DNA of 64,000 nt from an uncultured Actinomycetota bacterium (GTDB lineage: Bacteria; Actinomycetota; Actinomycetes; Mycobacteriales; Mycobacteriaceae), in NCBI GenBank assembly GCA_963720085.1, contig CAVRER010000080.1, positions 94,428-158,427 on the forward strand, read 5' to 3'. Position numbers and translations under genes: made by a program. The notes beneath the pieces are model-generated. The model saw only the letters and a list, made by a program, of their open reading frames with translations. It was not told the origin of the DNA and did not search any database. Positions within the stretch are counted from its first letter, which is position 1. The number at the start of each line of letters is the position of its first letter. Below, one piece after another: positions 32,731-64,000 of the stretch.

Positions 32731-32735
32731 TTGTC

Positions 32736-45289: not shown

Positions 45290-45335
45290 CAGTATCCGCC
45301 GGGCGCGCCTGCCCGGGTGCTTAGCGCCATTAGAC

Positions 45336-46916
45336 TTATCTCTTCCCCGCGCTTGTAGCCCAACGGTTAGAGCCGCGGCCGGTGGCTGGGGTGAGGCGGG
45401 CCATCCCGCGCAGGATCCATGGTGTGCGCCTGGCCATTGCCGCTACGGCGCGGTCCGAGCGGCGCATCGCGGTCCGAGGGCCGGGTGTGGGCGTTGACGC
45501 CAGTTCTGCCTCGGCAGATCCGGCCGGCGGGCCGTGGCGATCGACCGCCAGGAGTTGCCAGGTGCCGGGCACGCCGCGCAGCTCGACGCTGCCGCGGTCC
45601 TCGAAGCCAGTGCCCGAGCCGACGACTAGGTCACGCACGGTGCGGGAGACGAGGATTTCGCCGGCGCCGGTCTGGCCGAGGATCCGCGCCCGCGATGTGT
45701 ACGGCGATCCCCCCGATGTCGGTGTCCATCAGTTCACATTCGCCGGTGTGGATGCCAGCGCGGATCTCGATGCCCAGCGTCTCGGCGTCAGCGCGCAAGG
45801 CCTCGGCGCAGCGGATGGCCTGCGTCGGGCCGTCGAACGTGGTGAGATACCCGTCGCCGGTGCTCTTGACCACCGTGCCGCCGAACCGTTTCGTGAGTTC
45901 GGCTGTGACCTCACCAGAGCGGTGCAGCACCGCACGCCACCGCTCGTCGCCCGTCGCCGCGGCGCGTTCCGTCGATGCGACCATGTCGGTGAACAGCACG
46001 GTGCGCAGTGCGCGATGTGACTGCGGCGGCGCGGCATGGCTGCCGGTGAGGAACTCCTCGATCCCGCTCGTGATTTCGTCGGGATCGGTGAACCACGGCA
46101 CGTGGTCGGTGCCGTCGACCTCGCGCAACCGCGCGCCAGGGATGTGGTCGGCGAGATATCGGCCGCCCTGCACCGGAACGAGGTCGTCGCGGGCATGGAT
46201 GACAAGGGTTGGCGCGGCGATCGTCGGCAAGATCGGCCGCACGTCGATCCGAAACACCGTTTCGGCTGTCGCGCGCGCCATCCCCGGGCTGGCGCTCATC
46301 CGCTCCAACATCGCGAGCTGGCGTATCGACCGGACTGACGGCAGCAGACCTTTGAGTGCAGCACCGCTGCCCCACGCCGAGAGGGCGGCGCGGCCGAATT
46401 CCTGCAAGCGGGCGAGCTGCGCCGTCGTCGGGGTGTAGTCCTCACCCAGCTCGGGTACGAGGCGCGCCTGCCAGTCGGCCGGGTCACAATCCATGTCTTC
46501 CCAGCCGTCCCAGCCGGTGTACGCGAAGGTGGCGGTGAGAATCAACGCCCGCGTTCGCTCCGGTCGTGTCGCCGCGAAGACCATGGCGGCCGGGCGGCCC
46601 TCACTCACCCCGAAAACGACGGCCTTGCCGAAGCCGACGGCGTCCATAACGGCCTCGATCTCGGCCGCTCGATCATCCAGCGTGCGAACTTGCGGGACCG
46701 GGTCCGACAGCCCGACCCCGGCCTTGTCGAACAGCAGTACGCGACAGAACGTGGAGAGCTGCTCCATGAAGGCCTCGAACTCGGGCAGGGTCCAAAACAG
46801 CTCGACGTGGCTGACGAACGACCCGGCTAGGACGCCCGGCAATGGTTGATCGACAACGACCTCTGGAACGACAGCATCGGCATGCCGCCCGAGATGTACG
46901 ACCGGGTAGCCGACAC
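45336..46916 (-). pseudogene. LipJ-like alpha/beta-hydrolase + class III adenylate/guanylate cyclase fusion with at least 2 frameshifts (~46870, ~45689-45691)
   Basis: Hydrolase part: ...SFVSHVELFWTLPEFEAFMEQLSTFCRVLLFDKAGVGLSDP...VFGVSEGRPAAMVFAA.... Cyclase part: RTVLFTDMVASTERAA...KSTGDGYLTTFDGPTQAIRCA...IRAGIHTGECE...GIAVHIA. Then AARILGQTGAGEILVSRTVRDLVVGSGTGFEDRGSVELRGVPGTWQLLAV follows in another frame (extra base in the CCC run). Confidence 0.7.
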
Positions 46917-46943
46917 GCCGCGCCCAGACGCCGATGCAAACCA

Positions 46944-48040
46944 CTATCGATGTTCGATCACCGACACCGAGTTGTCGCTGTTGTTGGCGACGTAGACCGT
47001 GTGGGTGCCCGCATCCACCGCCACCCAGTATGGGCCCGCCCCGACGGGCACGGTGACGGTGCGCGTCGAGCCGTCGATCACCGACACCGTGGTGTCGCCG
47101 TTGGCGACGTAGACGGTGTGGGTGCCGGGGTCCACCGCCACCCCGTCCGGCTCCTTGCCGACGGGCACGGTGGTGGTGACGGTGCGCGTCGAGGCGTCGA
47201 TCACCGACACCGTGCCGTCGTCGATGTTGGTGACGTAGACGGTGTGGGTGCCGGGGTCCACCGCCACCCCGTCCGAGTGCTTGCCGACGGGCACGGTGGT
47301 GGTGACGGTGCGCGTCGAGGCGTCGATCACCGACACCGTGCCGTCGCCGTTGGCGACGTAGACGGTGTGGGTGCCGGGGTCCACCGCCACCCCGCCCGGG
47401 CCCTTGCCGACGGGCACGGTGGTGGTGACGGTGCGCGTCGAGCCGTCGATCACCGACACCGTGTTGTCGGCAGGGGTAGGGCGGTGGGCGACGAGAGAGG
47501 CGCTGCCTTTAGTGATGTAGACGGTGTGGGTGCCCGGGTCCACCGCCACCCCGCCCGGGCCCCCGCCGACGGGCACGGTGGCAGTCACGGTGCGCGTCGA
47601 GGTGTCGATTACCGACACCGTGCCGTCTTCGAGGTTGGTGACGTAGACGGTGTGGGTGCCCGGGTCCACCGCCACCGCGTCCGGCTGCGTGCCGACGGGC
47701 ACGGTGGCGGTCACGGTGCGCGTCGAAGCGTCGATCACCGACACCGCGTTGGGTGATTTCTGCCCGGGCTCGATGGGACCGCTGGTGACGTAGACGGTGT
47801 GGGCGCCCGGATCCACCGCCACCGCGTACGCGCCCTTGCCGACGGGCACGGTGGCGGTAACCCTGTGCAGGGGCCCGGACCCGGACCTCCGGACGGACCC
47901 CGACATCCAGATAGGAACACGGCCAACACGACGGTACCGATGATGGCGAGCACGCCGGTGAGCACCGGTATCGGCACGAGCCGCCAGCGTTCTCTTGGTT
48001 GATCATCGCCGCTGGCGGTCATATGCGCTGTCCTGGTCAT
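46944..48040 (-). pseudogene. YVTN-repeat beta-propeller lipoprotein with a frameshift (~47860-47895) separating the signal/lipobox from the propeller
   Basis: N-terminal frame from ATG 48040 (or 48022): [57 protein letters not shown]. The propeller frame (46944..47906) reads ...[29 protein letters not shown]..., with seven (V/A)TVPVG...[13 protein letters not shown](A/T)N...VSVID blades. Confidence 0.7.
46990..47880 (-). repeat. Seven in-frame tandem ~123-nt repeats (two with insertions) encoding the YVTN blades
   Basis: gtagacggtgtgggtgccSgggtccaccgccaccccg...gccgacgggcacggtggYggtSacggtgcgcgtcgaRgcgtcgatcaccgacaccg recurs at about 46994, 47110, 47233, 47356, 47518, 47644 and 47791. The central copies are close to identical. 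Confidence 0.9.
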
Positions 48041-48390
48041 CTTGTGTAGTGTGCGCCTGGCGCCTAACCGCGGTATGCGAGTTCGTCGAGTTCGTTGTCG
48101 TCGAGCACTCGGACCAGCCGGCGAAGGTGCCCGAGCGTGTCGCTGATCTGATCGGCCAACTCGCGGGCACCGGCGGCGCGGGCGCCGGCCAGGCGGGTCG
48201 CCGCCGTCAACGCGTCCACGGTGAGCAGGCCGCGACGGCATTCCGTGAGGGATTGCACCGCGGGCGTTCGGGCGCGGGCGAGTCTTCGCGGTGATCGATC
48301 TTCCGGGAGCGTCGATTGCCGCCTGAGCCCATGTCTGGCCCACGCAGGCCGATAGCAGTCTGAAAAACCGCCCTTGAACTGCACAAACTG

Positions 48391-48465
48391 TGGTGCGCGG
48401 TACTGGGATTGAACCAGCGACCTCTTCCGTGTCAGGGAAGCGCTCTCCCGCTGAGCTAACCGCGC
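48391..48465 (-). tRNA. tRNA-Val (anticodon GAC), CCA encoded
   Basis: Reverse complement gcgcggttagctcagcgggagagcgcttccctGACacggaagaggtcgctggttcaatcccagtaccgcgcacca folds as a cloverleaf (7-bp acceptor, 5-bp anticodon stem, T-loop ttcaatc). Confidence 0.92.
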
Positions 48466-48478
48466 CCGGTCGAAGAAT

Positions 48479-48552
48479 TGGAGGTGGAGACGGGAATCGA
48501 ACCCGTGTGCACGGCTTTGCAGGCCGTTGCCTCACCACTCGGCCACTCCACC
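48479..48552 (-). tRNA. tRNA-Cys (anticodon GCA), CCA encoded
   Basis: Reverse complement ggtggagtggccgagtggtgaggcaacggcctGCAaagccgtgcacacgggttcgattcccgtctccacctcca. Confidence 0.92.
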
Positions 48553-48580
48553 GCGGGGGTTGATGCCACTTGCACCCTCG

Positions 48581-48653
48581 AGCGGATGACGGGATTCGAA
48601 CCCGCGACCCTCACCTTGGCAAGGTGATGCGCTACCAACTGCGCTACATCCGC
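48581..48653 (-). tRNA. tRNA-Gly (anticodon GCC), CCA not encoded
   Basis: Reverse complement gcggatgtagcgcagttggtagcgcatcaccttGCCaaggtgagggtcgcgggttcgaatcccgtcatccgct. Confidence 0.92.
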
Positions 48654-48823
48654 GCGCAACGGACGAGATCGTCGCCCGGTGCGAAGCACGACGATAGTCC
48701 ACCCGAGCGGGCTCGCACAAATTTCTTGGTACCGTCAGCGCGCCGCTATCCGCGGCCCATCCAGCGCGTTCTGCCGGGACGCCCCCGCGTGCTAATCTTC
48801 GACGTCGTTCGCCTCTTGGCGCC

Positions 48824-48895
48824 GGTCCCGTGGCTCAGTGGGAGAGCGTCCGCTTCACACGCGGAAGGTCGCTGGTTCGATCCCAGCCGGGACCA
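48824..48895 (+). tRNA. tRNA-Val (anticodon CAC); integration target of the adjacent element
   Basis: ggtcccgtggctcagtgggagagcgtccgcttCACacgcggaaggtcgctggttcgatcccagccgggacca. The integrase gene ends 92 nt downstream. Confidence 0.92.
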
Positions 48896-48986
48896 CGAGG
48901 AGAATCACCAGGTCACGGGCATTTGCAGCGCTTGCACCTCGCGCCAGAGTCACCGCGGTTATCCGCCGTTTATCCGCCAGTCACGG

Positions 48987-50109
48987 TCAGCCTCCGAGCC
49001 CGTCGAGCGCATCCGCCACACGATCGAGGTCGGAGTCGTAGAGGTCGGCGTAGGTGTGCGCGGTCACCATGATCGATGCGTGGCCCATCGTCACCTGCAG
49101 CAGTTTCATGTCGGCACCCGCCGATCGAGCCAACGACGCGTAGGTATGCCGGAGGTCGTGTACGCGCATCGTTGGGCGTCCGAGTTCGGCGATCCTGATC
49201 CGCCAGCCAACCGCTCGCTTCCAGTTTTCGAGCCCGAGCCGCGAGCCCTTCGGCGATACGATCGCCGGTTCACCAGCTGGACGCCCTTCGATCCGGCGTT
49301 CAAGGATCGGCATCAGCCGTGCCGGAATTGGCACGCTACGACGACCGGCACGGCTTTTTGGCGGTCCCTCAAGGAGTCGGCCCGATAACTGTGTGATCGA
49401 TCTGCGCACGCGAATACGCCGCGTGTGCAGGTCGACATCTTCGACGTTGAGTCCGGTCAATTCACCGAACCTCAGTCCGGTGTAGGCGAGGATCAGGACC
49501 ACATCGCCTTGCTTCGAGGCGCGCGAGTCTCGCTGGTAGCCGTGTCGCACAGTTCGGCCAGCTTCGCCACTTCTACCGCAGTCAGGTACACGTGGCTGGT
49601 CTCCCCATCGCCGGGAACCGCACATTCGCCGCAGGGTTTTTGCCGCGCAGCTTCTTGTCGGCGATGGCATGATCCAGCGTCATGCGCAGCACGCTGTGAG
49701 TCCAGCGCACGGTGCGGGGCCCAGGCCCGCGGCGGTCATTTCGTTGACCCATTCCTGGACGTTCTCTCGCACGATTCGTCCGATCGGCCAGTTGCCGAAC
49801 TTCGGCTCGATTCGCAGCCGCCAGTTGTCCTCGTAGCCACGGCGGACCTTCGGAGAAAGATCAGGGTCGGGACGCGAGCCAACTGTTGTACACCACGTGC
49901 AGCTCGGTTTTGCCGCCGCGCGGGTCGACCGTTTCGCCGTCCTCACGAGCCGACCGCAGTTCCCCGTCGAAGAATTTGGCAGCCCGCAACGTCTTGAATG
50001 TCTTGGATCGCTTCGTCCCATCCGGTAGCAGCCATTCGACATCCCAGCGCGGTACCGGACTTCGCTTCACGCCTGCGAATCGTCGTCGCTCAATACCGTG
50101 ACGCGGCAT
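48987..50109 (-). pseudogene. int: Tyrosine recombinase/integrase with at least 4 frameshifts
   Basis: The pieces lie in different frames: MPRHGIERRRFAGVKRSPVPRWDVEWLLPDGTKRSKTFKTLRAAKFFDGEL... / DLSPKVRRGYEDNWRLRIEPKFGNWPIGRIVRENVQEWVNEMTAAGLGP / TVRWTHSVLRMTLDHAIADKKLRGKNPAANVRFP / ETSHVYLTAVEVAKLAELC / ...VVLILAYTGLRFGELTGLNVEDVDL...VHDLRHTYASLARSAGADMKLLQVTMGHASIMVTAHTYADLY (the R..HxxR..Y catalytic region). Confidence 0.85.
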
Positions 50110-50302
50110 GCCATTTCGCAACATCAGCACGAATCCATCGTCGATGCCGGGATGACAGCTTGCAGTGATGGGGACACCGGCGAGTCCACGTCTCGCTTCC
50201 GTTTCGCCGCCCAGTCATGCAGCGTGGAGACCCTGGAACACCCGTCATCCGCGACACCTCACCCGCTGTCAACACCTCGTCAATCGCTGTCACCATCGTC
50301 AT
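50090..50302 (-). pseudogene. xis: Excisionase-type HTH gene, apparently with two compensating frameshifts
   Basis: MTMVTAIDEVLTAGEVSRMTGV ... KLSSRHRRWIRADVAKWHAASRY are in one frame. The expected recognition helix (SRVSTLHDWAAKRKRDVDSPV) is only readable in another frame between them. Confidence 0.55.
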
Positions 50303-52010
50303 CGTCGCTGCCCTTTCTCTCCGGTTGCGGGAATCTGCTGCCCGCCTGGTGGTCCCGGTGGCGAGTAGCGCTTCGTCGTATTCGGTGCGCCAGATGATGC
50401 GTTGGGCGACGGCGCGCATGATCAGCTCGTCGCGGAGCGGGATCCTGCGGTCGCCGGGTTCGCATCTGAAGATCGCCACTCGGGCCGGATCACGCGCAGG
50501 TTTGCTGATTCCGGCGTCGGCGAGGAGTTGCCGAACAAAGTTCTCGCGTCGCCCGATGATCGGGAGGGTTTTGCCGGTCCATTTCCGCGACACCAACACC
50601 CGCGTCCGGCAGTCCGAGGGTGCTGCGGCGGTGTGCCTTGCCTTTGCACCGGCCCGGCTCCGTTGTGCTGTTGGCGCCTTTCGGGATGATGCCGTAGCGC
50701 AGCCACACTGGGCACCGCTGCGAGCACGGCGTGATCGCGAGTTCGGCGTGCAACCGGTCATGGTGGTGCCGTTGGGCAGCGGTGTTGGGTTCGACGATTT
50801 CGCTGATCGATTTCGTCAGGTACTTGGTGAGGTAGCCGATGTGGCGTTCGGCTTCCTCGGTGCCGCCGAGGATGCCCTTGTGTTTGCATTGCTGTCCGAA
50901 TCGCACCACGTGAGCCGGTTGCGTGTCCTCGTCGCTGGCGATGGCATCCAGCGCCTCATCCCACGACGTGAGAGGTGCGTGGTTGTGCGGGTCGATGAAC
51001 GTGCGAGCATCCCGATCCACACCGGCCGGTCCTCTTCGTGGTCGCTGGCGTAGATGAGGTGGTCGGAAATGGTGGGGCCACCACACCTGGTGGTAGGTGG
51101 CGGCGGCGACCTGGCGGGTGATCTGGTGCGGGATCGCGCCCCGCAACGCGGCGTGCAGATGCGGTGCGGCGCGTTTTTGCGGTTCGACTGTCGCGGAGTA
51201 CTGCACCTCCCATCCCAGGACGCGCCGCAGGTTCTGTATCAAGCGGTCCACCAGCGCGGAGAAGTGGATGGGTCCTGCGCGGCGCGCCGGTAGTCGTAGG
51301 TGGCTGGGTCCACAGGTGCGCCGTCGCGGATCGGCGGGAGCCATCCTCCGCAGGTCAGCGTCAAGAACATCGACGGCCGGTACTTCCCGGCGTATTCGCG
51401 CCCGACCGTCGTTTTGCGTACCTGCCGGGTGGGCAAGTCCGGAGCGTCCTGGCGTCGTCGGGTCGAACGCGTGCGCGTGATGGTGGCCGGCGCATCCGGT
51501 GATGGTATAGGCCCCCGCAATCCGGACGCGCGCAGCTCGTTGTCGGCGGCAACTGGATCTCCTCGCGCAACTCCCCGGCAGCGGCGTCCTCGCCCTCGTC
51601 GCACGCGGCCCGGTACGCGACGATCAGGTCCGCGCGGTGGGCCAACAACTCCGATTGCCCCTCGCTCGGCGCGTTCGGTTCCTCGACGGGTTCATGGTCG
51701 AGGTGCCAACCCTCGCGGAGTTGCTGCATCCGCAGCAGCCGTGCCCTTTTCGCGCACGACGGGCACTGGGATTCCATCGTGGATTTAGCACGCCACAGCC
51801 ACGTAGTCGCTGACGCCGGTGTCCAGGTCGAGGGTGCGCATCACCAACGGCCGCACACACACGCCGTGCCTGTCTGCAGCCGAGACGGCGACGTCGTGGA
51901 AACAGGGTCGGGCGCGTCGCTGGGCAGCTGGTCTCCCGCTGACGCGACCCCAGTGCGTGGTGATCTGGTCTCAACGGTGACGTGGCAGTCGGTTCGGTGT
52001 CGGTGATCAT
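50303..52010 (-). pseudogene. repSA: RepSA-like replication initiator with at least 4 frameshifts
   Basis: ATG 52010 overlaps the traSA stop (ATGA). Fragments: ...HGVCVRPLVMRTLDLDTGVSDYVAV / ESQCPSCAKRARLLRMQQLREGWHL / ...VGREYAGKYRPSMFLTLTCGGW...VDPATYDYRRAA / IHFSALVDRLIQNLRRVLGWEVQYSATVEPQKRAAPHLHAALRGAIP...GYLTKYLTKSI / ...RVLVSRKWTGKTL.... These are characteristic pSAM2 RepSA motifs, from memory. Confidence 0.75.
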
Positions 52011-53421
52011 GGCGCCCGCTTCTCGTCGCGTTCGTCGGGTCGGTGACGCCGCCTGGTTGGGATGAAATGCTCTGTCAGGTAGTCGATGTCGGCGTCGGTG
52101 ACGTGGAAGGCGCGCACCCGGATGGGTTCGGTGCACGGTCTTGAATTGTCACGTATCCCACACCCGGTGTGCCGGTGGGGATGTGGTCGCAGACCGCGCC
52201 GGCCTCTCGTGCGGACGCGCCCAACACCATCGTCGTTTGGCTACTTTCGGTCATCCGCAAAAGGCCCGATCCGCACGGTGAACAGCTCGGATCGGCAGGA
52301 CCTCTTTCGAGGGGTCTGCACTGCCGCGACCACCGACACCCCGACCGCGCGGCCCTGGGAGAGCAGCAGACCGAGGAGTTGTTCCACTTCGCCACGGATT
52401 TTGCGGTCACCGATGTAGGCGGTCAGCGACGCGAGTTCGTCGACGACCAGCACGATCAGCGGCTCGGCGACGGTCGGGGTGTGCAGCCGAGTACGACCAC
52501 GGAGCCGGGCCGCCCGCTGCTGCATAACCGCGACGACCGCGCGCAGCAGGCCCAAGGTGCGGTCGCCGTTGTCGTAAGCAAACCCGGTGGACAAACCGGC
52601 GCCGCGGCCGAACTCTCATCCCCCCTTTAGGGTCGATCACGCACAGCCGCACCGAGCGGCGCGAACAGCGGGGCCAAGGCCGCGATCAGCGACCACACCA
52701 CGCTGCCCTTGCCGGAGCCGGTGGCGCCGGCAATCAAGATGTGGTGTCCCAACACCGGCAGCCGCCACCACCGCCTGCTTCGGCGGCACGCACCCCGACA
52801 GAATGAGGATCGACTGTGGTTCCGGCGGCGGGGCGGCGCAGTCGCAGTGGAGGCGCCAGCGCATCGCTGTGATGCACGATGATCTGCAGTTCTCCTGGCG
52901 TCGTCGAGCGGATGGTTACGCGCTGGGCGCGCCACGCCTGGGCCAGCGCTTCGCCGTGTTTTTGCCAGTCGGCCACGCACTGGCCGGTCACGATCCGCAC
53001 CACCAGCACGTCGCTGGTTGCGCCGATGGTCACTGACTGCAGCAGCGGGATCAGTGTGCGGTCATTGAGGGTGGCGGTCAGGTGATGCAGCGTGCACACC
53101 TGCTCCCAGGACCGTTTGTATCGCCACCAGGTCAGCGATGACTCCCGGATCGGATCCCGACACCAGCCGGTGAAATGACTCGCGGTCCAGATGGCGCCAG
53201 AGCCCGTAACCGATTGCGCACACGACGATGACGACGACGCCGAGTCGCCACCCGGTCAACGCGGTCGCACCTAGCGACACCACGATCGGTGTGCTCACCA
53301 GCGGGAAGCGGACCGCCCACCATGCCATCAATCCGATCAGTTTCGCCGCTCCCACCAGCACGGCTTCCCATGCATCGTCTGTCGCGTTCTTAGACTTGTT
53401 GCCACCGCGGGCATCGGCCAT
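52007..53421 (-). pseudogene. traSA: FtsK/SpoIIIE-family DNA translocase (TraSA-like) with about 6-7 frameshifts
   Basis: N-terminal TM part MADARGGN...LIGLMAWWAVRFPLVSTPIVVSLGATALTGW...; Walker A LPVLGHHILIAGATGSGKGS; VRLCVIDPKGG; Walker B LIVLVVDELASL; LLSQGRAVGVSVVAAVQ; LRMTESSQTTMVLG...GVGYV...; IRVRAFHVTDADIDYL. Each piece is in a different frame segment. Confidence 0.8.
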
Positions 53422-53656
53422 GACTGCTTCCGTTTCTCTCCGTGGTTAATCCGGTTGTCGAGCTAACGTGATTGGGCGTCACTGAACTACGCCCGAGACG
53501 GTGGCGCGGGACTGGCGAGTCGCGATCAGTCCCGGTCACTCAGCCGCCTTCGGGGGCTCGCCGCGGGCTCGGTCCAGACGACTTCGCCTGCCACGCAGGC
53601 GAATTTGTGTCGCCCTTGATCCCGGTCGCCCGGTACACGAACCCCACAACGTGTAC

Positions 53657-53983
53657 TCACCCTGGCCCATGCGTCGAGCCTCCGCGCTCAGACCCTCCAG
53701 CTCGATCATCCGACATTCCTCCGCCCGCTACCAATTCCGGCGTAGCAGGGACCGGCTGCACCGGCGCGGTGAAGATCACCTCAAACGACGCCCTCTTGGC
53801 TTTGTCCTCTGTCCGGGTCGACACCGCCGCCACCCACTGCAGCAGCCCCGTCTGTGGATCGGTGATCTGCACGTTCGGACGCTCGAACTCCATATGGGGA
53901 CCAATCGGTCCCAGCAACATCAGCCCCCTCGGAAACACGTCTGCGTGCTCCACCGGGAACCTGTAACCCCGCTTGATCGCCAT
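53657..53983 (-). pseudogene. pra: Pra-like 'plasmid replication, integration and excision activator' with a C-terminal frameshift (~53735)
   Basis: MAIKRGYRFPVEHADVFPRGLMLLGPIGPHMEFERPNVQITDPQTGLLQWVAAVSTRTEDKAKRASFEVIFTAPVQPVP... matches the N-terminal pattern of this AICE protein family, from memory. The expected ...MIELEGLSAE... continuation is in another frame. Confidence 0.6.
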
Positions 53984-54016
53984 GTCCGTTGTCCTTTCAC
54001 TCGTGACTCCCTCGTA

Positions 54017-54192
54017 ACTCCTCTAGACAAGGAGTAACATACATAGTCGTCTAGAGGAGTGCAAGGGTCAATCAAAGGTTTTTCGAACGGGCGTCAGCAC
54101 GCCGAGAAATGCCATTCCAGCAGGTGGGCCTCCACCTGATCGATGGTGCCAGCGACAGGTGTGGCATTCTTTTCTAGGCTAGTCGTCTAGAG
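54017..54192. promoter_or_regulatory. Three GTCTAGAG/CTCTAGAC motifs in the pra-korSA divergent intergenic region (candidate KorSA/GntR operators)
   Basis: A perfect 12-bp inverted repeat actcctctagac (54017-54028) / gtctagaggagt (54049-60). The 13-nt direct repeat tagtcgtctagag occurs at 54044-54056 and 54180-54192, the latter just upstream of the korSA start. The core resembles the GntR-family GT-N-TA-N-AC type palindrome. Confidence 0.5.
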
Positions 54193-54205
54193 ATGCGAGG
54201 GAGGG

Positions 54206-54529
54206 TTGACAGTGCTGCACCTTGGTCAGATCGACCGTGGGGACGATCGTGCGGCATATCGGCAGATCGCGGACGTGTTGCGGGACGCGATTAAGTCCGA
54301 TCGATTGTCCTCCGGGAAGCGACTTCCGTCCGAGACGGAGTTGATCGAGCATTTCGGTGTGGCCCGCATGACGGTCAGGCAGGCCGTGCAAGAGCTCCGC
54401 AGCGAGGGACTTGTGCACTCGGAACACGGCCGCGGAGTGTTCGTCCGGCCAAATCCGCGGTATGTACCCGGAGGGGCCGAAATCCAAGTCGGCGTAACTA
54501 CATTCGTAGGACGAGTCACACCGAAATAG
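54206..54529 (+). CDS. korSA: GntR-family winged-HTH regulator (KorSA-like), effector domain missing or frameshifted
   Basis: ...AAYRQIADVLRDAIKSDRLSSGKRLPSETELIEHFGVARMTVRQAVQELRSEGLVHSEHGRGVFV. Only ~107 aa. An open frame downstream (EIARLIAYDHGWRLFGDQIIDQDEVVVADTLEELARKALALGWFDPTGAGINWHHFGGD, to ~54702) may be a displaced C-terminus or a separate small gene. Confidence 0.7.
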   Translation: MTVLHLGQIDRGDDRAAYRQIADVLRDAIKSDRLSSGKRLPSETELIEHFGVARMTVRQAVQELRSEGLVHSEHGRGVFVRPNPRYVPGGAEIQVGVTTFVGRVTPK

Positions 54530-55491
54530 CTCGCCTCATCGCCTACGACCATGGGTGGAGACTGTTCGGGGATCAGATCATCGATCAAGACGAAGTGGTC
54601 GTCGCTGACACGCTCGAAGAACTCGCCCGTAAAGCACTCGCGCTGGGCTGGTTTGACCCCACCGGAGCCGGCATAAACTGGCACCACTTCGGCGGGGACT
54701 AAGGACACCAACGCCGACACCATCCGCAATTCCACGCCTAGACGCCCCCCAGGTCCCCGACTATCGCTCCTTATCGCCCCACGCCGCGTGCGTCGGGCGC
54801 CGCGTGCGTCTGGCGAGGCAGACACATCCACACGAACAAGCCCCTGTACCAGACGCTGCGCCGCGACTTCGAACCTCCGCGCCGCACACAGAAGCGCGCC
54901 ACCAACAGGTGGCTACTGCTCGGGCCCGTTGAAGGGCATCTGCCGAATTCCGCTCTATTGGATCAAGGCGGCGCGCAAGCGCGCCGCGCCGCGCCGCGAT
55001 GCCCGGCCCTCCGGCTCGTCCCTCGCGGGGCCGGGCGGCCCGGCAATCCATCGCAGGATCGCGCCGACGAACATCCCTGGGCGGCATTCACGCGAACCGA
55101 CACAGACCGAACGCCACAGCTCGTTGCTGGCTGCCGTATTCACGATCGAACGTCGCGTCCGAGCTAGCCCGCATGCGTCGGCGTGTGAATGGCCCCGGTC
55201 GGCCAGGTCGCACGGGAACTTTGTTACGGCGCAGGTACCATCTCCGCATCAACGAATCCCTACCAGCAGCCGAGGGCACCGTCGCCACTCTTCATCGGCG
55301 CAATTATCTGACTTCCCGATCGGACGAGTAAAGGGCGCCTTCGGCGTCACTACGTGATGGTTTGCCACCCTTGACAGGCCCTCTCGTCAGCACAGGATCG
55401 CCAGTGTGAAGAAGGGGGAGCGCGAGAACAAACATGCCGGCGGTCGTAACACTGACTACGCCAGCGGCGCCCCCCAGCACCGGAATTACTG

Positions 55492-56234
55492 CTATCGAGA
55501 CTTGGAGAAGATCAGACGAGGCCGCGGATGTACGTGACCCGACCAGCGACGGCCCGCCGTGAGGTTCTGGGTCCTCGACACCTCGGGCATCGGCTCGCCC
55601 TGGACTGCCCTCACCCTGCCCCGAGGAGATGAGACAGGCTGCGTCATAGAGGCGTTCGCGTACAAGCCGCTGGAACAGTATCGAGTAGCGATCAGTGTAG
55701 GAGGAACGATCGAAGGCTGGATCCGTGGGATAGAGGTCTCGTGCCCTGGTCCCTTATAACGCTCGTGGAGCCTGGTGCGTGCTCGATGACGAAGACGAAG
55801 CCCAGCCACGGGCCCGCACAGATCCCACGTAACCGGCCTCGTAGGCGCGCCACAGATCGACCGCGTTGCCGATGGCTTCCTCAGTGCGGTTGTTGAAGTT
55901 GTTACCGAACGATCCGACTTGCGACTTGCACTCAATCGCGGCGACAAGCGTGTTCTCAAAGGTAACGACGATGTCCCAGTTTTTCGCGCGCCGGTAGAAG
56001 CCGGGGAGGGGGATGGTGCCGGTGCGCCGGATGACTGCACCCACTTCAACTAGGGGCGCGAACTGGTTCGCAATCACATCTTGAAGTGGGGTGCTTTACG
56101 TGTTGACCTCCAGTGACGGATCCGCGAGTCCCTGCGTCTATTTTCCCGGAGTCGACTTGCTTCTGGGTCTGGAGGTCGCGGCCTGTCCAGAACGCGTGGA
56201 TGGCGGCGTTGTAGTCGTCGAAGGTCGTGGTCAT
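55492..56234 (-). pseudogene. Type II restriction endonuclease, XhoI/PaeR7I-like (tentative), with at least 2 frameshifts
   Basis: MTTTFDDYNAAIHAFWTGRDLQTQKQVDSGKIDAGTRGSVTGGQHV / [84 protein letters not shown] / C-terminal remainder in a third frame. The [17 protein letters not shown] signature is what I recall for the XhoI endonuclease family (PF04555). Confidence 0.5.
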
Positions 56235-56273
56235 TCCGGCATGCTCCCATTCATCGGGCGGGGGAGATGCGAA

Positions 56274-57942
56274 TCAAGTCCGTGTCGTGAGCTCGTACTC
56301 CGCCGGGTCAACGCCGTACGCGATGGCCGCAGCGCGGGTGGCTGCGTCCACGTCGCGGTTTCGGAAGGCCGTGCGCAGGGACTCCGCAACCGGCGAGTCG
56401 ACGGAGTCGGGGCGCGGGACCCTAATCTGCTTCAGGTACTGCGCCTGGAAGCGGAGGGTCCCGCCGCGCATGCGCACGCAGTACGCCTCGATAAACGCCT
56501 GGGCGACCCGCGCGAGCAGCAGGCCACCGAGGACTTCCATGTCCCAGGTGTCGGACACCACGTAGTAGAGGTTGTGGTGCGGATAGTAGCCGCCGGGTTC
56601 CAACACGGGGTGAATATGGGCCTTCATGTCTTGGAGTAACAATTTGGGCTTGGCCGTGAGGTCTGCGTTCACTTTGTCGATGGTCCGATGCCAGGATTTA
56701 GGGTCCCTTTTCGCAACGAACCGCTCGCGCAAGGCGGGATGCTGTGACAGATACGCGGCCATTCGCGGGTAATCATCAAGTGCCACAAGGGAACCGTCGT
56801 CGGCCCACGGGTTCACCAAGTAGTTGCGTTGCCAATCGAATGTGCCCGTCATCAGGTCCCCTGCCATGGACAGCGGCAGGATGCGTTCGGCCTCCGCGAC
56901 GCTCGGGTCCTTCGTCACGTAGACCTGGTCGGCGCCAGTGGCGATGCCGATGGAGACCTTCGTGCCGGTTTTCGGATCATGCAGCGGGCCGAACCGGTCG
57001 TTCAGGTGCGCGATGAGGGCAAGCCGCGCTGGTGAGCCGGTAGGCCACATCTCACCGCCCTCGAACCAGTGGCGGAGCCGATAGGCCGCCACGCCGGTGT
57101 CGAAGAAGTCGGCGAAGTTCTCGTCTTGAGCGGCTTTTGCGAGAGGAAGCGCTGGACGGCCCGAAGTCGGCTGTCGTGTCGGCGACGACCACAACCCCCT
57201 GTGGTTCTTCGACAGCACCGTGATCGCCGGGTAGGCCGACACTTGGGTCTCGAACGCATCCACATCGTGCATGGTCCAGATGTGCTCGACGGCATAACGG
57301 CTGGCCACCAGCTCCCTTAACGGGGCACCGTATTGGTTGCGCATCCAGCGGTCTGCGCAGATGAAGCCGATCTTGCCGCCGGGCTTGAGAGTCCGTAGTG
57401 CACGCTCAATGATCCGACTAGATGTCACCCCGACCACGCATCGTCGGCCACGTTCGCCGGGTACTCCGCAGCGACCCCCTCGGGAAGGTCGTCATAACGG
57501 ATATACGGCGGGTTTCCGACGACAACATCAGCCGCCAGCTCTTCGAACTCACACAGCAGGTCGAGTCCGGACAGCAGGAAGTCGCCATGGCGCACCCACC
57601 GCGCCGCCAATTGAGCTGCGACCTTCTCAGCCGCACCCGCTTTCGTAGCAGGCCACGACAAAGCGCACGAGATACCTTGACATGCCCGGCCTGCAGGTCG
57701 TATGCCAGGACACTGTCGAACAGCGTCATGAAGTCACGGTCGCGGGCGGTCACGCTCGCCAGAAGGCGCTCGACGGCAGGTCCCAGAAATGCACCGGAAC
57801 CACACGAGGGCTCCAGCAGATGCAAGGCACCGAGGTCACGGTCGGCTGTGTATCCGGTGAGGTCGAGGAGCAGATCGACCACCCATCGGCGAGTGAACAC
57901 TTCACCGTAGTTCTGGGCCAAGTCGGCGGCGGGCAGGGTCAT
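56274..57942 (-). pseudogene. Gamma-class N6-adenine DNA methyltransferase (Eco57I/TaqI-like, M.PaeR7I-like size) with at least 3 frameshifts
   Basis: Motif I LLEPSCGSGAFLGPAVERLL (frame a); motif IV VVGNPPYIRYDDL (frame b); RRTWPTMRGRGDI (frame a again); then ...IIERALRTLKPGGKIGFICADRWMRNQYG and a ~380-aa TRD-like C-terminus (frame c). It sits 40 nt upstream of the endonuclease gene on the same strand. Confidence 0.7.
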
Positions 57943-58488
57943 GGATACCACTCTAGGAGTGAGCACCGACACCCGGCGTTGGTGACACCCGACGAGGCAT
58001 GAGCAGACAGTAACTCGTCTCAGAGCGGCGAAGCGGTAGCGAGAGGAGTGCGGCGTAGTCTGGCGCGGTTGGGGGAGTTCGGCTTGAAGAAATCGAGCTT
58101 GAAGCGCGTGAACCGTTCGAACTGAAAAGGCGCATGTTGATGGTCAGCCGGGACGAGGCCGACCGACTCCTGCTGACGTTGGCGCGCGAGCGTATCGACC
58201 CTGGACTGGACGCGGCGGCAGTGCAAGCCTGCCGAGCTGGAAGTTATAGCGCCGACACCCCGGGTTAAACCCAGGATTCCGTCGGGGTCGCCATCTACGC
58301 TTGTCCGGGAGCTTTTCGATTCTTGGCTTATAAGTATGGGACGTACTCTGTTACGCACGAGCCCTGTTGCGCGGCAGCGTCGTTGGCGTGTTTGGTAGCA
58401 ACGTTTGATCTGCCGCCGCACGCGGTTTCGTGGCCTGCGGAGAAAAACGGCCCAGAACCGCGTGCACGTGACGGGTGGGCGGGGCTTG

Positions 58489-59329
58489 TTACGTCTCTCG
58501 GGTTGTTGCAAAGCCATTGAGCGCATCACGAAGAATCTGTTTGATGGCGTGTAGGCCGTCTTTGATCAACTCTTCCGTTCGGAGAGTCTGGCCAGTCCAA
58601 CGCTCAGGGTCGCTACGCGAAAACGACATCACCCGAATGATCGTTTTGTCATGGGCCGTGGCCCGGTCGTGAAAATGATGCCACGACTCGCCTTCCATGT
58701 TCCCGCCGATTGGGTGTCCAGCGACGATGTTTCGGGCGACAATTGCGGCTTTACCGCCTTTACGGTCGGCTCGTAGTCGGACGCCGAGAACTTTTGCGGC
58801 GCTTTCGGCCCCATCGAACGCGACCTGAAGGGCCTGAAGGAGTCCGTACTTTGCGAGGTATGCCTCGTCGACGAAGTTAAGGGAACCGCGTCCGCATAGC
58901 CCTCAATCGCTCCGATGGCATCTTCCACCACCATGAGGGCTGCAACTAGCTCGTTCGGATGACCAGCCAACTGGTCGGATCATCGACTGCCGCGCGAATG
59001 TCATTGCAAAGGCTGAGAGCTTCTTGGGCATCGGTAGACCGCAGATACTGCTTCGCCAGGGAGAAGAGCCCGCGAAGGAGCACTCCAAGTGGCGTATCGG
59101 CCCAGATCCTGTCGGGTTCCAGGGAAGGGAACGCAGTATCGACGAACGCCCGGAGCGCCGTAGCCAGGGACGCGTCGTCGGAGGCATCCTTGACCGCAGA
59201 GACCGCGTCGCCTGTCAGTGCTGGCGGGGCTTCGCCGCTGCTAGGCCAGTAGTTCAGGATCGCCTTTGCAACATCCTTGGCCTTGTCACCTAGCTCCCTT
59301 GAGGTCAGCGCCACGAAGGCATGATGCAC
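58489..59329 (-). pseudogene. Hypothetical protein with a HEPN-like Rx4-6H motif, 2 frameshifts
   Basis: Three frames join to VHHAFVALTSRELGDKAKDVAKAILNYW...DIRAAVDDPTSWL / GHPNELVAALMVVEDAIGAIEGYADAVPL / FVDEAYLAKYGLLQALQVAFDGAESAAKVLGVRLRADRKGGKAAIVARNIVAGHPIGGNMEG...ILRDALNGFATTRET*. ARNIVAGH fits R-N-x4-H. The family assignment is speculative. Confidence 0.4.
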
Positions 59330-59675
59330 CCAAAGGTCGATTGTTCGCTCACCACAATTGACGAGGGATGCCGCTCAGAGCAGTGGTGAGGGCGCTAGTT
59401 CGCCCCGCACTGTACTGAAGCAGGGCGGCGATCGCGGCGCATCCATGGCGCGCATCAGGTTAACGTCACCGCATGCCCGATCGTTCCTAGCGACTTTTGT
59501 AGTCATCGTCTGGTGCGTCGCGGGACTGGCAGCGCTCTTATTCGGGTTACCGCTGTGGCTCAGGCCGTTACACGTACACGTTGACGCCGGCCTGATAGTC
59601 GATAAGCAACCTAGGCAAACATGAGAGACTGTTCACCCCGTGGTTTCATGATTGCTGGGCTTTTGAACGCGAACT

Positions 59676-61280
59676 TCAATACCGTGTTCGTAAAGTCTTC
59701 TTTGAAAGATGTCCTCGCTTCCTGGATTGCGCAACAGATGGGACTCTTTCCTGGCGAAAGACCTTCCGTAGTAGTTCAGCGCCTCCTACTAATGGGGTAA
59801 TGAATTTATCATCAGCTTGTATCGCTGCGACTGCATCCACGATAGGTTTAGGGGATAAATTCCGCAGGATACTTAGGCAAACAAGAAGCGTCTTTAGCCT
59901 TGTAGGAATTGAGGTTGCATCATAAACCGTTCCGTTTGGAAGGCGAACTTTGAAGCCATGAATTTGGTCGTTGAATACGTAGACGAACGGTCCCTCAGCG
60001 TTTGTTTCACCTGACGGAAAGGATCTGGCGATGCGCCACATCGTGAACGTATCACCTTCTCGTTCCACGTACGCCCCTGAGTGAAAGATAGTTTCCGCAT
60101 CAGAATTCTCGGCGAGATGCCAGACGCCTAACTCCAGCGGACTGAACTCGAAGTAAACGTGCTTAAGGGACACATGCGAGTTCTCGACTGGCGATGCATT
60201 TCGCACTGGAGCAAGTGTAGGTAGATCCTGAATAGCGACCGCCGTAGACCACATTGCGCTATCGATTGGGGCAGTCGTCAGGTACAAGGGTTCCTCCACC
60301 AAGATCGTCACTGCGTCGTCTCGTAGAAGATTCCGTGATTGCCCACTCTCTGAGTCGGTTATTTTAGTGAGACGCAGATCAGCGGAAAGAATGGGTGTGC
60401 TGAGGTGTATAACTTCTCGTGATACCTCGGTAGCGGATGCTTCATCCCACAGGTATAACGGCACGGGAATAGTCTGCGCGAGAGTGAGTTCGTCCGACCC
60501 CGGCGTTGCCTGGAGCGTCAGCGGAATCGAGAGCAGGCGACGGTACCAAGGATCTGAGGCAGGTCCCGGAAACAATGTTGCTCCGCTGACTTCATTACTA
60601 ATTTCAGAACGCACCCGCGATGATATTGGGATGGGGTTGCCCTGTCGAAAAGCTAACAGGTCACCCCCATCCACTTCTTTGTCGGAATAAACGAGCGACG
60701 CGAACTGATTCTTAATACGAAGGCTGTCTGCAATGCCGGAAGGAAGCTCAGACAAGTCGACAAGTTGACCATGTATTTGCGGGACGGCACCGGACGGTTC
60801 GAGTACATCAAGTACGACAAGGTAACCTAATTCCTCACCTGAGGGCCTAGGCACGTAAGCGTCGATGTTAGCGCTAAGATCTTCGTCCGAGTTGTATGGT
60901 CCAGATGGGCCAAGGATATGAGTAGTCGGAGTTCGATCCAGCGAATTGAGCGCAAACCATAGAGCCACATCGAGGTCTGTCGTCACATCAAGGAATGGCG
61001 ATCCAAGGCTGTACTGCTGCGCGATAAGCTCAGTCCATAGGACAAAGTCTTCGGGGCTATCATTTTGCACATCTCTTAGATCGTCCACAATCAATTTCGC
61101 AGCAACCTTCAAGAGCCGCTTTCTCGGATGTCGGGCTGCCGACGGCCTATATTCGCTCGGAAGTATTGACTCGTAAAGCCTGGCTTGGCCACGTAGTACT
61201 CGACGACACCCGGAGGCGACTGGAGGTAGCGCATCAAGGTAATCGCTAATCTCTTGTTTCGAATTAAGCTGGTTTGTCAT
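59676..61280 (-). CDS. FRG-domain protein, 534 aa, intact, in a low-GC (~45-50%) islet
   Basis: The N-terminus RRVLRGQARLYESILPSEYR...WTELIAQQYSLGSPFLDVTTDLDVALWFAL matches the FRG domain signature ((F/Y)RGQ...LxPSxxR...AQHYGLPTxLLDxTxxxxVALYFA). The remaining ~400 aa have no motif I recognise. The ORF is uninterrupted although all neighbouring cargo genes are broken. Confidence 0.8.
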   Translation of the reverse strand: MTNQLNSKQEISDYLDALPPVASGCRRVLRGQARLYESILPSEYRPSAARHPRKRLLKVAAKLIVDDLRDVQNDSPEDFVLWTELIAQQYSLGSPFLDVTTDLDVALWFALNSLDRTPTTHILGPSGPYNSDEDLSANIDAYVPRPSGEELGYLVVLDVLEPSGAVPQIHGQLVDLSELPSGIADSLRIKNQFASLVYSDKEVDGGDLLAFRQGNPIPISSRVRSEISNEVSGATLFPGPASDPWYRRLLSIPLTLQATPGSDELTLAQTIPVPLYLWDEASATEVSREVIHLSTPILSADLRLTKITDSESGQSRNLLRDDAVTILVEEPLYLTTAPIDSAMWSTAVAIQDLPTLAPVRNASPVENSHVSLKHVYFEFSPLELGVWHLAENSDAETIFHSGAYVEREGDTFTMWRIARSFPSGETNAEGPFVYVFNDQIHGFKVRLPNGTVYDATSIPTRLKTLLVCLSILRNLSPKPIVDAVAAIQADDKFITPLVGGAELLRKVFRQERVPSVAQSRKRGHLSKKTLRTRY

Positions 61281-61746
61281 CCATGATCATGACTGATTAT
61301 GGGCCTTATCTGTTTCCCGGCCCCCGTCTGTTCTGAAGCTCCACTGTGCGGACGACATTTCTTGACGACAGCCGACTAACCGTACACCCCAGTTACACCT
61401 CACTAGTCTTCCATCATGCTTGGTCACGCCATCCGCCCCCTGCCAACGGGCCGTAGGTTCATCTTCATCCGCCGTGCATCCGCCGCGCCCTTCATATTGC
61501 GTGCTCTGAACCCCGAAGATTGGTCCAGTTCGTCCAGCTTGCCCAGCACGAACGCCTCTCTCCCGACTTCGCCTCAGCCTGAAAAGCGGAGGGTCGCTCA
61601 TGGGATCCGCGGCCCGACATCTGGCCGTAGGCCAGCACTGTTACGTCGCGTAACACAGCAACGCATATCCGCAGGACATCGACATGTTGCGTGACACCGC
61701 TATCGAACATCCATCGCAGCTCACGGGCTATTTCTGCAGCTTCTCT

Positions 61747-61774
61747 ATGGGGTTCGAGTCCCCTTAGCTCCACC
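61747..61774 (+). other. Isolated tRNA/tmRNA 3'-end-like fragment (T-arm plus 3' acceptor strand); candidate att remnant
   Basis: atggggttcgagtccccttagctccacc: T-stem GGGG/CCCC, T-loop TTCGAGT, then TAGCTCCACC, which resembles the ...CAGCTCCACCA 3' end of tmRNA. There is no matching 5' acceptor strand (ggagcta) within 100 nt upstream, so it is not a complete gene. Confidence 0.45.
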
Positions 61775-62053
61775 TATATAACTGCAGGCGACCACGGCCT
61801 GGAGACCGCGAAGTTCCTCACCTGGGTCCAGGACCACGTATTGCGCTGCGGCCTCGCCGAACTCGCCACCGCCACGCCCACCCCAGGCCGTCTGCGATCC
61901 GCCGCCAACGCATACCGCACCGCGGTCGAAAACCTCACCACGGCAGCATAATTCGGGCAACAAAACATCAACCCCCACAACCCCAATCGAACGGCGAACC
62001 CGACCCACACCACTGACTTGACTCAAAAATCCGGCTTCGCCGGATCTAGCCAT

Positions 62054-62713
62054 CTAGCCACCGGGTAGCCCCATCGGCCCATGCCCAAGGATTTGCCCGA
62101 TGCTCGTGAGAAGCGTCCTGAGAATGTCCATTGCAGCCTCCGGCGGCAACGCCGCCGGGAGAACATAGCCCAGAATCAGCCCGGCGGCCATGAGGAGCCA
62201 GTCCTTCCGACCGACGCGCCTGGCGGCGGAGGCGAGATAGTCGAGCCTCTCTTGCAGGAGTCGCGACTGCGACTCCGAGAGCGAGTACGTGCGGCTGACG
62301 TAGTCCCTCAGTTCTCTCAACTGTCGCGCAATTTCTTCTTGCTCGGCGAGGGTGAACGGCGCGTTCCCGATGGCCTCATCGGAAACGGCTCCGAACAACT
62401 CCGTGTCGCGCTGAAGCTGGGCCCACAGATCTGGCGTGTCGACGTCTAACTTGATGGCCGTTAGCCAAAATTCAACCTGCGCCATCAGCCGAGTAAGGCT
62501 CAGCCCGGTGCGCTCCTCGACCGGACCCTCGCCGGCCAGATAGCGCGACACGTAGTTTCCAGCGACACCTCCGAAGTCGAAATACGCCCCCGATGGGCTG
62601 TGCCGAAGGCGGCTCTCGTCGGTGCCGAGGTCCCAATCGAACTCTTGCGGGGAGAGTCCGGCATCTTCAACGGCCTGAAAGATTTTGTTCCGCTGCCACT
62701 TCTTTAGTCCCAC
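62054..62713 (-). CDS. Hypothetical protein, 219 aa, intact, C-terminal hydrophobic helix
   Basis: MGLKKWQRNKIFQAVEDAGLSPQEFDWDLGTDESRLRHSPSGAYFDFGG...coiled-coil-like LAEQEEIARQLRELRDYVSRTYSLSESQSRLLQERLDYLASAARRVGRKDWLLMAAGLILGYVLPAAL.... No family recognised. Confidence 0.5.
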   Translation of the reverse strand: MGLKKWQRNKIFQAVEDAGLSPQEFDWDLGTDESRLRHSPSGAYFDFGGVAGNYVSRYLAGEGPVEERTGLSLTRLMAQVEFWLTAIKLDVDTPDLWAQLQRDTELFGAVSDEAIGNAPFTLAEQEEIARQLRELRDYVSRTYSLSESQSRLLQERLDYLASAARRVGRKDWLLMAAGLILGYVLPAALPPEAAMDILRTLLTSIGQILGHGPMGLPGG

Positions 62714-62968
62714 GTGACCAGCCTATCCGGGTACCAGACCTAGCCCATCCATGAGCGGCGGTGTCGGCGGCGGTGTCTTGGTGGAATGGTTACAGGCGGG
62801 CTGACGGTCACCGTTTATTCACCGCCAATCACCGGGAACGGACCGGAATTGCCCGGTTGCCATCGGGGTTCGCGCTAGTCAATCCGGTTGTTGCACAATG
62901 AGAAACAGGCAATAACAGGCACTGTCAGGATCTAAGGATTGCTAATCCGTTGGTCGCGGGTCGCACGC

Positions 62969-63250
62969 TCAAGCAAGCTGAACGGCGTCGAGGTCAGCCC
63001 CGTCCGCGCTTCCAGTTCCGTCGTCCGATCCGCCATTCCCACCCCTTGACTCCGTCGAGTCGGGTGAGACGTCAGGATCGAGTGCTCCATTTGACAGGTC
63101 GTACCGCTGCTGCGTCACCCATCCGCCCAGCCGATAACCCTCAGCGGTGGTGTAGTTGGCTTCGACCTCCGCGTCACCCGCCACGCCTGAACGCTGCCGG
63201 CGAGACGGCAGGAAGACCAAACCGCCAATTCCATTGCGGCTGCTCAGCAA
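62969..63250 (-). pseudogene. Possible fragment carrying one helicase-associated (HA) domain-like repeat
   Basis: ...EANYTTAEGYRLGGWVTQQRYDLSNGALDPD... resembles the G..LG.W...QR motif of HA domains. There is no helicase core nearby. Weak call. Confidence 0.3.
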
Positions 63251-63272
63251 ACTTCAGTCGGCCGGCAAACAC

Positions 63273-63698
63273 TCACATTGACTTACGCTTCAACGAGCGG
63301 TTCGCGACCCTGACCTGCCAGGCCACCAACGCTGGCATCCCGATCAGCTCCAGACCGATCGCAGCGACGAACAGCGGATGTGGGCGACCGGAGGCTCGCC
63401 AAGACAACAGCCGCGCCAGGCCGCCGAGGAACACCACACCGCACACTGTGCGAAAGCGGCCGCCCCGCTTCTCGATGTTGGGCACCGCGGACCAGAGGAT
63501 GGGCGCGGTGGCGAACCAGAATGTGCTGGCGAAGCGGTACTCGCTGTCGGCGCTGGATTCGAATCGACTGTTGTCGCCGGGCAGCGTCGCCGGGCCTGCG
63601 ATCATCCCCGCCAGACCGGAGACGAACGGGATGGCTGCCAACGTTGCCGCGAGGATCTGCAGCTGCCTGCGACCGCCGTCACCGCCCTGCGAATCCAT
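63273..63698 (-). CDS. Small 4-TM membrane protein (DUF4345-like)
   Basis: 141 aa: ...[23 protein letters not shown]...[20 protein letters not shown]...[16 protein letters not shown]...[19 protein letters not shown]. Confidence 0.6.
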
Positions 63699-64000
63699 GC
63701 CGTCGCCCCTTTCGATCGCTGCACGCTCATCCTCGCACCGGAAAGCGTTTGGGTCAGGCCCTTAGACGGGCTCGAATGACGTCGTGACGTGTCAGCAAAC
63801 GGTGCAGACAGTCCGACAGCTCATGAGTCCGTCGGCGACGTTGTCACAATGCTTGCACAACTAGGTGCGAATAAGGGGAGTAGACGGGGGACGACGTGAG
63901 ACGGTTTCGCCTGGTCAGATTGTATCGAGAGTCATTGCAAGACAGCGAAATTCAGCCTGTGTCCGACTGGGGGTCAAGTGGTCGCCGGTTCATTTGCGAT

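Follow-up and report, generated by a model that had tools for sequence, protein, structure and literature searches.

FRG-long: a rare two-domain protein carried as mobile cargo, a candidate conflict effector with an apparently damaged copy in a Mycobacteriaceae integrative element

We examined 64,000 nt of DNA from an uncultured actinomycete of the family Mycobacteriaceae (GenBank assembly GCA_963720085.1, contig CAVRER010000080.1, positions 94,428 to 158,427); this whole stretch is called the window, and all coordinates are positions in it. On its minus strand, at 59676..61280, lies an open reading frame (ORF) of 534 codons with an ATG start, reading MTNQLNSKQ...TLRTRY before its stop codon and identical to database protein P0001. 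It encodes a member of a family, here called FRG-long, in which an N-terminal FRG domain is followed by a large C-terminal domain. A first-pass annotation of the window, made from the letters and an ORF list, had presented this ORF as an intact, low-GC, single-gene defence candidate. The ORF is present as reported, and its depressed GC content is real (500-nt windows give 0.49-0.53 over the ORF and 0.61-0.69 over its flanks), the 43-50% originally given being slightly too low; the reconstructed coding sequence (CDS) described below has 0.512, the chromosomal core (1-48 kb) 0.658 and the remainder of the island 0.631. The FRG signature was borne out by the Pfam hidden Markov model (PF08867, 94 positions only), which matches residues 29-113 (60942..61196, minus strand) at 27.7 bits, above the gathering cutoff of 25, and which matches all 20 aligned family members, with a best E of 7.9e-10. 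Models of the PADLOC candidate system PDC-S15 match the same N-terminal stretch, likewise in 20 of 20 members (best E 2.8e-9; in the window, residues 5-114 against model positions 21-126 of 300, E 4.9e-5). These matches are partial throughout the family, covering about 100 of 250-420 model positions, and none approaches full length. FRG-long resembles PDC-S15 in being an FRG protein encoded by one gene and occurring near defence genes; PDC-S15 proteins differ in being about half as long and in carrying another C-terminal part. The ORF protein has no match in NCBIfam, PHROGs or PDB sequences (the last by single-sequence and profile search), and the approximately 400 residues C-terminal of the FRG core match no entry in Pfam, NCBIfam, PHROGs, PADLOC or PDB.

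Homologues of the full-length protein were sought among 5.8 billion proteins, yielding 24 clusters that align along the entire protein, with identities down to about 27%. An exhaustive profile search with the C-terminal domain alone, against 1.84 billion cluster representatives at E<=0.001, returned 214 proteins or clusters, nearly all of which place this domain at about residues 250-530 of a 550-600-aa protein. From these alignments and an AlphaFold2 (AF2) model, the window protein divides into an N-terminal FRG domain (N-domain; residues 1-250, 60531..61280) and, from family alignment and profile search, a family-specific C-terminal domain (C-domain; residues 252-513, 59742..60527), both on the minus strand. 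The affinity to PF08867 is evident in an N-terminal core that scores above the cutoff and in the FRG-defining motifs [F/L]RGQ and LDVT...ALWFAL, of which RGQ and the latter are invariant in FRG-long; the window reads LRGQ, most other members FRGQ or YRGQ. FRG-long differs from the Pfam family as modelled in that its fold reaches as far as residue 250 or so and invariably precedes the C-domain of about 300 aa, which is absent from the libraries. Invariant residues of the N-domain include R27, R30, G31, Q32, Q88, Y90, G93, S94, L97, D98, V99, T100, W108, F109, G152, D158, D175, R188 and Q192, together with A106 and A110 (alignments A1 and A3), while the C-domain is marked by the motifs FPxPxxDPWY at the junction, EEP and VYFEFSPLE.

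Length variants of the family (n=10 scanned) retain this arrangement, with FRG upstream of the C-domain in seven of seven long forms; three of the long forms carry additional TPR arrays and one a SEC-C motif. These additions, TPR arrays at either terminus or an N-terminal SEC-C (P0107, P0186, P0170, P0141), suggest optional sensor or partner-binding modules. The remaining three variants, of about 340 aa and without any Pfam domain, were considered as stand-alone C-domain proteins and set aside as probable truncated gene calls, since their start falls at an internal PM[DT]G, a motif that the full-length members conserve. The long variants all carrying FRG and the short forms being probably miscalled, the family is built on a fixed core of FRG plus a C-domain of about 300 aa. 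FRG-long is rare and appears to be undescribed as an architecture; its clusters occur mainly in soil Actinomycetota, Acidobacteriota and relatives, with a patchy distribution.

Comparison with the closest alleles indicates that the window ORF is not the ancestral form of the gene. In a three-way DNA alignment of the window with its two nearest relatives, L001 and L021 (the latter an ENA metagenome contig bearing a twin of the window element), two single bases occur in the window where both relatives have a gap: an A at 61270 and a C at 59742, on the minus strand. The reconstructed ancestral CDS, about 550 codons plus the two inserted bases, occupies 59633..61284 (minus strand), from an ATG at 61284..61282 to a TGA at 59635..59633. 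With the extra A, the ancestral frame becomes ATG GAT GAC AAA CCA GCT TAA and terminates at 61266..61264; the frame is rescued by an ATG at 61280, which lies 4 nt past the ancestral one (61284), with about five N-terminal residues altered. This lesion is presumably nearly harmless, since any ribosome-binding context would be shared by the two starts. The extra C replaces the last 37 ancestral residues with 21 unrelated ones, which resemble no relative in the family alignment and form the sole disordered stretch of the AF2 model, and translation of the other frames recovers the true tail, HLLRNPGSEDIFQRRLYEHGIEVRVQKPSNHETTG and its stop, displaced out of frame at 59633..59741 (minus strand). 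Within the lost segment a VYLLR strand and a Gly are conserved; taken as a whole, it shows the lowest conservation in the family (majority fraction 0.35, versus 0.46-0.53 elsewhere). As assembled, the window copy is therefore best regarded as a recently damaged allele and not as an intact ancestral gene; the earlier description of the gene as uninterrupted does not hold, nor does the argument that its survival among dead neighbours signals selection, the gene itself having two frameshifting insertions.

Selection on the family is nonetheless discernible from its substitutions. Nei-Gojobori dN/dS is 0.28 between the window and L001 (dS 0.23), 0.16 between the window and L021 (dS 0.71), and 0.20 between L001 and L021, values indicative of a protein-coding family under long-term purifying selection. 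The window lineage has a ratio of nonsynonymous to synonymous changes (N:S) of 12:27 and keeps all 63 alignment columns of at least 85% conservation, from which it follows that the frameshifts, if real, are very recent. Within the C-domain (codons 260-549), changes in the L001 lineage stand at 17 N to 6 S against 7:15 in the window lineage (Fisher p=0.007), which, in these small counts, hints at adaptive change in that lineage.

The low GC content likewise extends beyond this copy: in four different contexts the actinobacterial clade of FRG-long has about 51% GC where its hosts have 61-66%, so that the low value belongs to the gene clade rather than to the window. Identity between the window and L021 is 1.00 up to 61296, falls to 78-83% in the FRG CDS (without internal indels), and returns to 0.97-1.00 after about 59645, the flanks being 97.5-100% identical and the boundaries of divergence coinciding with the start and stop codons of the CDS. 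Because a dS of 0.71 inside the CDS adjoins flanks that diverge by under 1%, these alignments show replacement of FRG by an old allele within a conserved backbone, a swap confined to the CDS, rather than hypermutation. A diversity-generating retroelement or other hypermutation target was considered and ruled out, the divergence spanning the whole CDS at dS 0.71 and dN/dS 0.16 without an excess of N. The window FRG gene is nearer L001 (90% nt identity), whose copy lies in an unrelated island, whereas the gene downstream of it is nearer L021 (about 98%) than L001 (85%), which places a recombination breakpoint between the two genes. On the other side, a short upstream segment on the minus strand at 61296..61316, GAAACAGATAAGGCCCATAAT, is common to the L001 cassette, with blastn homology to L001 beginning at 61316. 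It includes a -10-like hexamer, CATAAT, just upstream of the FRG start and could conceivably act as a promoter; a scan for promoters and terminators gave no signal above shuffled expectation.

The neighbourhoods of relatives are largely those of defence, conflict or mobile DNA, as the first reading of this gene had anticipated: eight of twelve classifiable independent loci fall into such contexts. Restriction-modification (RM) genes are recurrent. Type I RM adjoins FRG-long in three independent lineages, accompanied in one by two ThsB_TIR genes and 8xMP/DUF7701 (L018, L019, L008), in another by the CD-NTase and Cap15 of a cyclic oligonucleotide-based anti-phage signalling system (CBASS; L020), and in the third by YgjP, Ymh and DUF8370/8371 (L017); Type II RM accompanies it on the integrative and conjugative element of the window and L021. 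Elsewhere the neighbours are DUF499/HEPN_Swt1, DUF1156, an SNF2 helicase and a resolvase (L001), an Mrr-helicase, Imm_superinfect, insertion sequence (IS) elements and a resolvase (L023), an RHS toxin (L022), or an integrase (L003-L006). Given that the neighbours vary in this way, FRG-long behaves as a self-contained module. In a Solirubrobacteraceae metagenome-assembled genome (MAG; L018, the same locus as L008), FRG-long (5950-7623) lies between the ThsB_TIR/8xMP/DUF7701 block, which adjoins Type I RM, and a 1231-aa protein without Pfam match (9920-13615); the arrangement may amount to a composite defence locus of larger size.

Directly after FRG-long in the window is a broken copy of a 280-290-aa gene of no assigned function (58492..59335, minus strand, traced by tblastn in three frames). 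Intact copies are found at L001:11781-12653 and L023:4670-5512, and L021 has a homologue as well; the gene carries a conserved stretch, GHPIGGNMDGESWHHxHDRATAHDK, and its family comprises 56 clusters, including non-actinobacterial lineages. Described earlier as HEPN-like, it loses that identity here: an intact homologue has no Pfam or PADLOC match at E<=1, and no PHROGs match was found. It may be another uncharacterised defence-island gene. Since it is co-linear with FRG-long only in the actinobacterial clade and its family is broader, it appears to be a separable module and not an obligate partner, and the obligate co-occurrence expected of a type II toxin-antitoxin pair is not seen, the partner being absent from FRG-long loci outside that clade.

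The element in which both genes reside was pieced together from the annotation of L021, which is collinear with window 63084..51616 (11.5 kb), and from Pfam scans of the window ORFs. Its order runs from tRNA-Val through a truncated integrase, a RepSA fragment, FtsK/SpoIIIE, a GntR regulator, an XhoI-type restriction endonuclease and an Eco57I-type methyltransferase to the 280-290-aa gene, FRG-long and three small genes. The tRNA-Val(CAC) (48824..48896, plus strand, ARAGORN) is one of a cluster at 48391-48896, of which Val(GAC), Cys and Gly(GCC) are on the minus strand. It stands directly before a tyrosine integrase truncated to a 227-aa ORF (48987..49670, minus strand; Phage_integrase, Pfam positions 27-170 of 172). 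The element probably integrated at this tRNA gene. All other components are also on the minus strand: the RepSA fragment at 50490..51344 (Pfam positions 171-370 of 438), a broken FtsK/SpoIIIE gene at 52010..53421 (FtsK_SpoIIIE, collinear with L021), the endonuclease at 55515..56234 and the N6 methyltransferase at 56277..57942. The last two are broken here and uninterrupted in L021, in keeping with the decayed RM pair noted at first pass. Beyond FRG-long, the backbone common to L021 holds genes of 72, 113 and 219 aa with function-less annotation (61495..63208, homology reaching to at least 63208); a look-up of the 219-aa gene found only L021 and two 1-kb fragments. At the point matching window 63085, L021 (approximately 135-1483) carries a 1.36-kb IS (HTH_Tnp_1 and rve) that is absent from the window.

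With a tyrosine integrase beside a tRNA gene, RepSA and FtsK/SpoIIIE, as well as GntR, the assembly of genes corresponds to a pSAM2-type actinomycete integrative element (AICE), to which we assign it on gene content, with FRG-long and the RM pair as cargo. It departs from the type in that the window copy is broken throughout as assembled, that no att repeat was found and that its far end is undefined within the window. Att direct repeats linking the tRNA region to 62700..64000 were not detected; the element may extend past the window, or the repeat may have decayed. The tmRNA-like att fragment proposed at first pass does not survive either, an ARAGORN and Rfam E-value scan of 45000-64000 having given only the four tRNAs and no tmRNA.

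Structural modelling supports the division into two domains. An AF2 model built on a 20-sequence alignment is confident (pLDDT 84.7, pTM 0.82), and the N-terminal 250 residues or so, modelled separately, form one domain (pLDDT 85) that holds the FRG core. Foldseek against BFVD gave one real match (E 9e-5, 243 aligned columns), an uncharacterised phage protein of 220 aa that is itself likely to be a short FRG protein; since it aligns across these columns, the N-terminal region of about 250 aa would seem to be equivalent to a complete short FRG protein. For the C-domain (residues ~252-513) no fold relative was found in PDB or BFVD and no profile match in PDB, so that the description of the C-terminal part as unlike known families stands, there being no library, PDB or fold match. 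As to activity, Frg has been placed computationally by the Aravind group as a clade of the ADP-ribosyltransferase (ART) superfamily and a predicted NADase antiviral effector (PMC9503650), and FRG figures among the ART-like families of a 2025 survey (PMC12522546). The first-pass annotation had left the role of FRG blank; this was correct insofar as no experimental study was found, and incomplete in that the PDC-S15 candidate and these predictions exist. By eye, the first two ART motif positions could be assigned to R30 and then S94 or T100.

Overall, we read FRG-long as a two-domain mobile cargo gene, likely a conflict effector, whose window copy has recently been damaged, and we put the probability of this reading as a whole at about 0.55. 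The analysis itself establishes family membership, architecture, purifying selection, mobility, the allele swap, the contexts and the two insertions; a role in conflict goes beyond these, and we regard it as probable. FRG-long would act as a single-protein effector against phages or other mobile elements: the FRG domain would consume NAD+ or transfer ADP-ribose, and the C-domain would release or activate it, a task that the TPR arrays of some relatives could also perform. The chemistry is more tentative than the conflict role, with the odds leaning somewhat against it, and a sensor function for the C-domain is likewise conjectural. The proposed logic, an effector domain fused in one gene to a sensing or regulatory domain, is by analogy that of NAD+-depleting abortive-infection effectors of the SIR2 and TIR types; FRG-long has neither sequence nor fold similarity to these, and the NAD+ activity of FRG is a prediction. 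In a fuller version of the idea, rather unlikely in all its particulars, a novel-fold C-domain would sense a phage component and switch on an ART-like FRG domain, leading to abortive infection by NAD+ depletion or target ADP-ribosylation, and alleles would be swapped as cassettes under arms-race pressure; such exchange would account for the 20% divergence confined to the CDS and for the excess of N in the C-domain of one lineage (N:S 17:6).

Several observations weigh against this interpretation. The third ART position is an invariant Q192 with a near-invariant Ala, not an invariant Glu (the invariant acidic residues of the N-domain being D98, D158 and D175). When PDB was searched with Foldseek, no match to the full model fell below E 0.26 and none to the N-domain below E 0.83; CARDS toxin, at E 3.5, was the lone ART listed. 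A profile search of PDB sequences found no match. The literature searched contained no experimental study of FRG or PDC-S15. Four of the twelve classifiable loci (L007, L010, L012, L014) have housekeeping-like surroundings; none of the phages in the annotated collection carries FRG-long, and the only plasmid that does, a conjugative one of Sulfobacillus, bears a distant copy. Finally, loss of function in the window copy is a presumption, and the part removed by the frameshift is the one where conservation in the family is lowest.

Two other functions were considered for the gene itself. FRG-long and its downstream neighbour could form a toxin-immunity or addiction cassette that stabilises the element instead of defending against phages. 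Within the actinobacterial clade, each of the four contexts (window, L021, L001/L002, L023/L024) has the two genes co-linear, they are all that the window and L001 share, and both are broken in the window; the partner is nevertheless missing outside that clade, its 56-cluster family exceeds the close relatives of FRG-long, a recombination breakpoint lies between the two genes, and the spacer between them, of about 130-300 nt, differs among elements. We hold this proposal to be improbable. Still lower stands the notion that FRG-long is an accessory enzyme or regulator of a housekeeping kind that mobile DNA merely carries. The four housekeeping-like loci speak for it, as do the want of a match to any validated defence model and the partial nature of the PADLOC matches, which are to a candidate family only; such a role is difficult to square with RM, CBASS, TIR, Mrr or RHS genes repeatedly adjoining FRG-long across lineages that are 30-40% identical, with the exchange of the CDS alone inside a conserved backbone, with TPR fusions typical of conflict-system sensors, and with a patchy, rare distribution.

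A more serious challenge concerns the damage and not the function: the gene and most of the island may be intact in the organism, the frameshifts being consensus errors of a long-read or MAG assembly, concentrated where related variants of the element were collapsed, with the unique FRG allele called cleanly except near its edges. Relative to L021, the flank downstream of FRG (51616..59632) shows 54 indel events alongside 75 substitutions, a ratio of 0.72; indels and substitutions number 6 and 6 in the methyltransferase gene and 10 and 10 in the FtsK gene, and the indels break window genes whose L021 counterparts are uninterrupted. Such a ratio is far above that of ordinary pseudogene decay. 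For the FRG CDS, with its 320 substitutions, the expectation is 9.8 indels and the count is only 2 (Poisson P=0.003), each of them no more than about 100 nt from an edge of the divergent segment. This deficit fits the error model, and it also fits an FRG allele that arrived by import, or was maintained by selection, once decay of the island was under way. Errors are further suggested by the lack of relaxed selection on the window FRG lineage, by the Flye-style name of the twin contig and the presence of long-read soil MAGs in the same collections, and by split domains in core genes: in a CitMHS transporter (21850-23212, minus strand) the frame carrying Pfam positions 1-265 abuts, near 22300, the one carrying 266-336, and in an AFG1/ZapE ATPase (37830-39595, plus strand) positions 1-88 and those from 95-212 onward are divided in the same manner near 38900. 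Frameshifts are therefore not restricted to accessory genes, which further weakens the case built on one intact gene amid decay, the indel excess of the island being perhaps an assembly artefact. On the other hand, many core ORFs of 350-800 codons are uninterrupted and any error would not be uniform; about half of the flank indels lie outside homopolymers and about 13 are of 2-4 nt; and the partial integrase and RepSA suggest decay, though indel-broken frames could mimic that picture. A third copy of the element that could polarise the indels was not found, the contig of P0004 being a different element. Hence the frameshifts in FRG could be real decay or assembly error, and we give the latter account somewhat less than an even chance.

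Apart from these subjects, an 852-codon ORF in the window (30882-33440, plus strand) joins in one frame an Amino_oxidase domain (protoporphyrinogen-oxidase-like, residues 170-527) and a chlorite-dismutase/HemQ-like domain (653-842); it may represent a HemY-HemQ fusion, or else a pair of neighbouring genes that no in-frame stop separates.

The idea of a single-gene defence module, with which the annotation of this locus began, thus keeps its family assignment and, largely, its context, and loses its argument from intactness. Two cautions for scans of this kind attend that outcome, namely that an uninterrupted-looking ORF can be a frameshifted derivative, and that an "island of dead genes" can be an artefact of assembly. 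FRG proteins are listed defence candidates and predicted NAD+-acting effectors, and within them FRG-long is now defined as a distinct subfamily of approximately 214 clusters, with confident structure models, conserved residues, intact alleles and neighbourhood evidence. With these in hand the defence hypothesis is directly testable, and FRG-long is a reasonable experimental target by way of an intact allele (for example P0002 of L001) and not the window copy.

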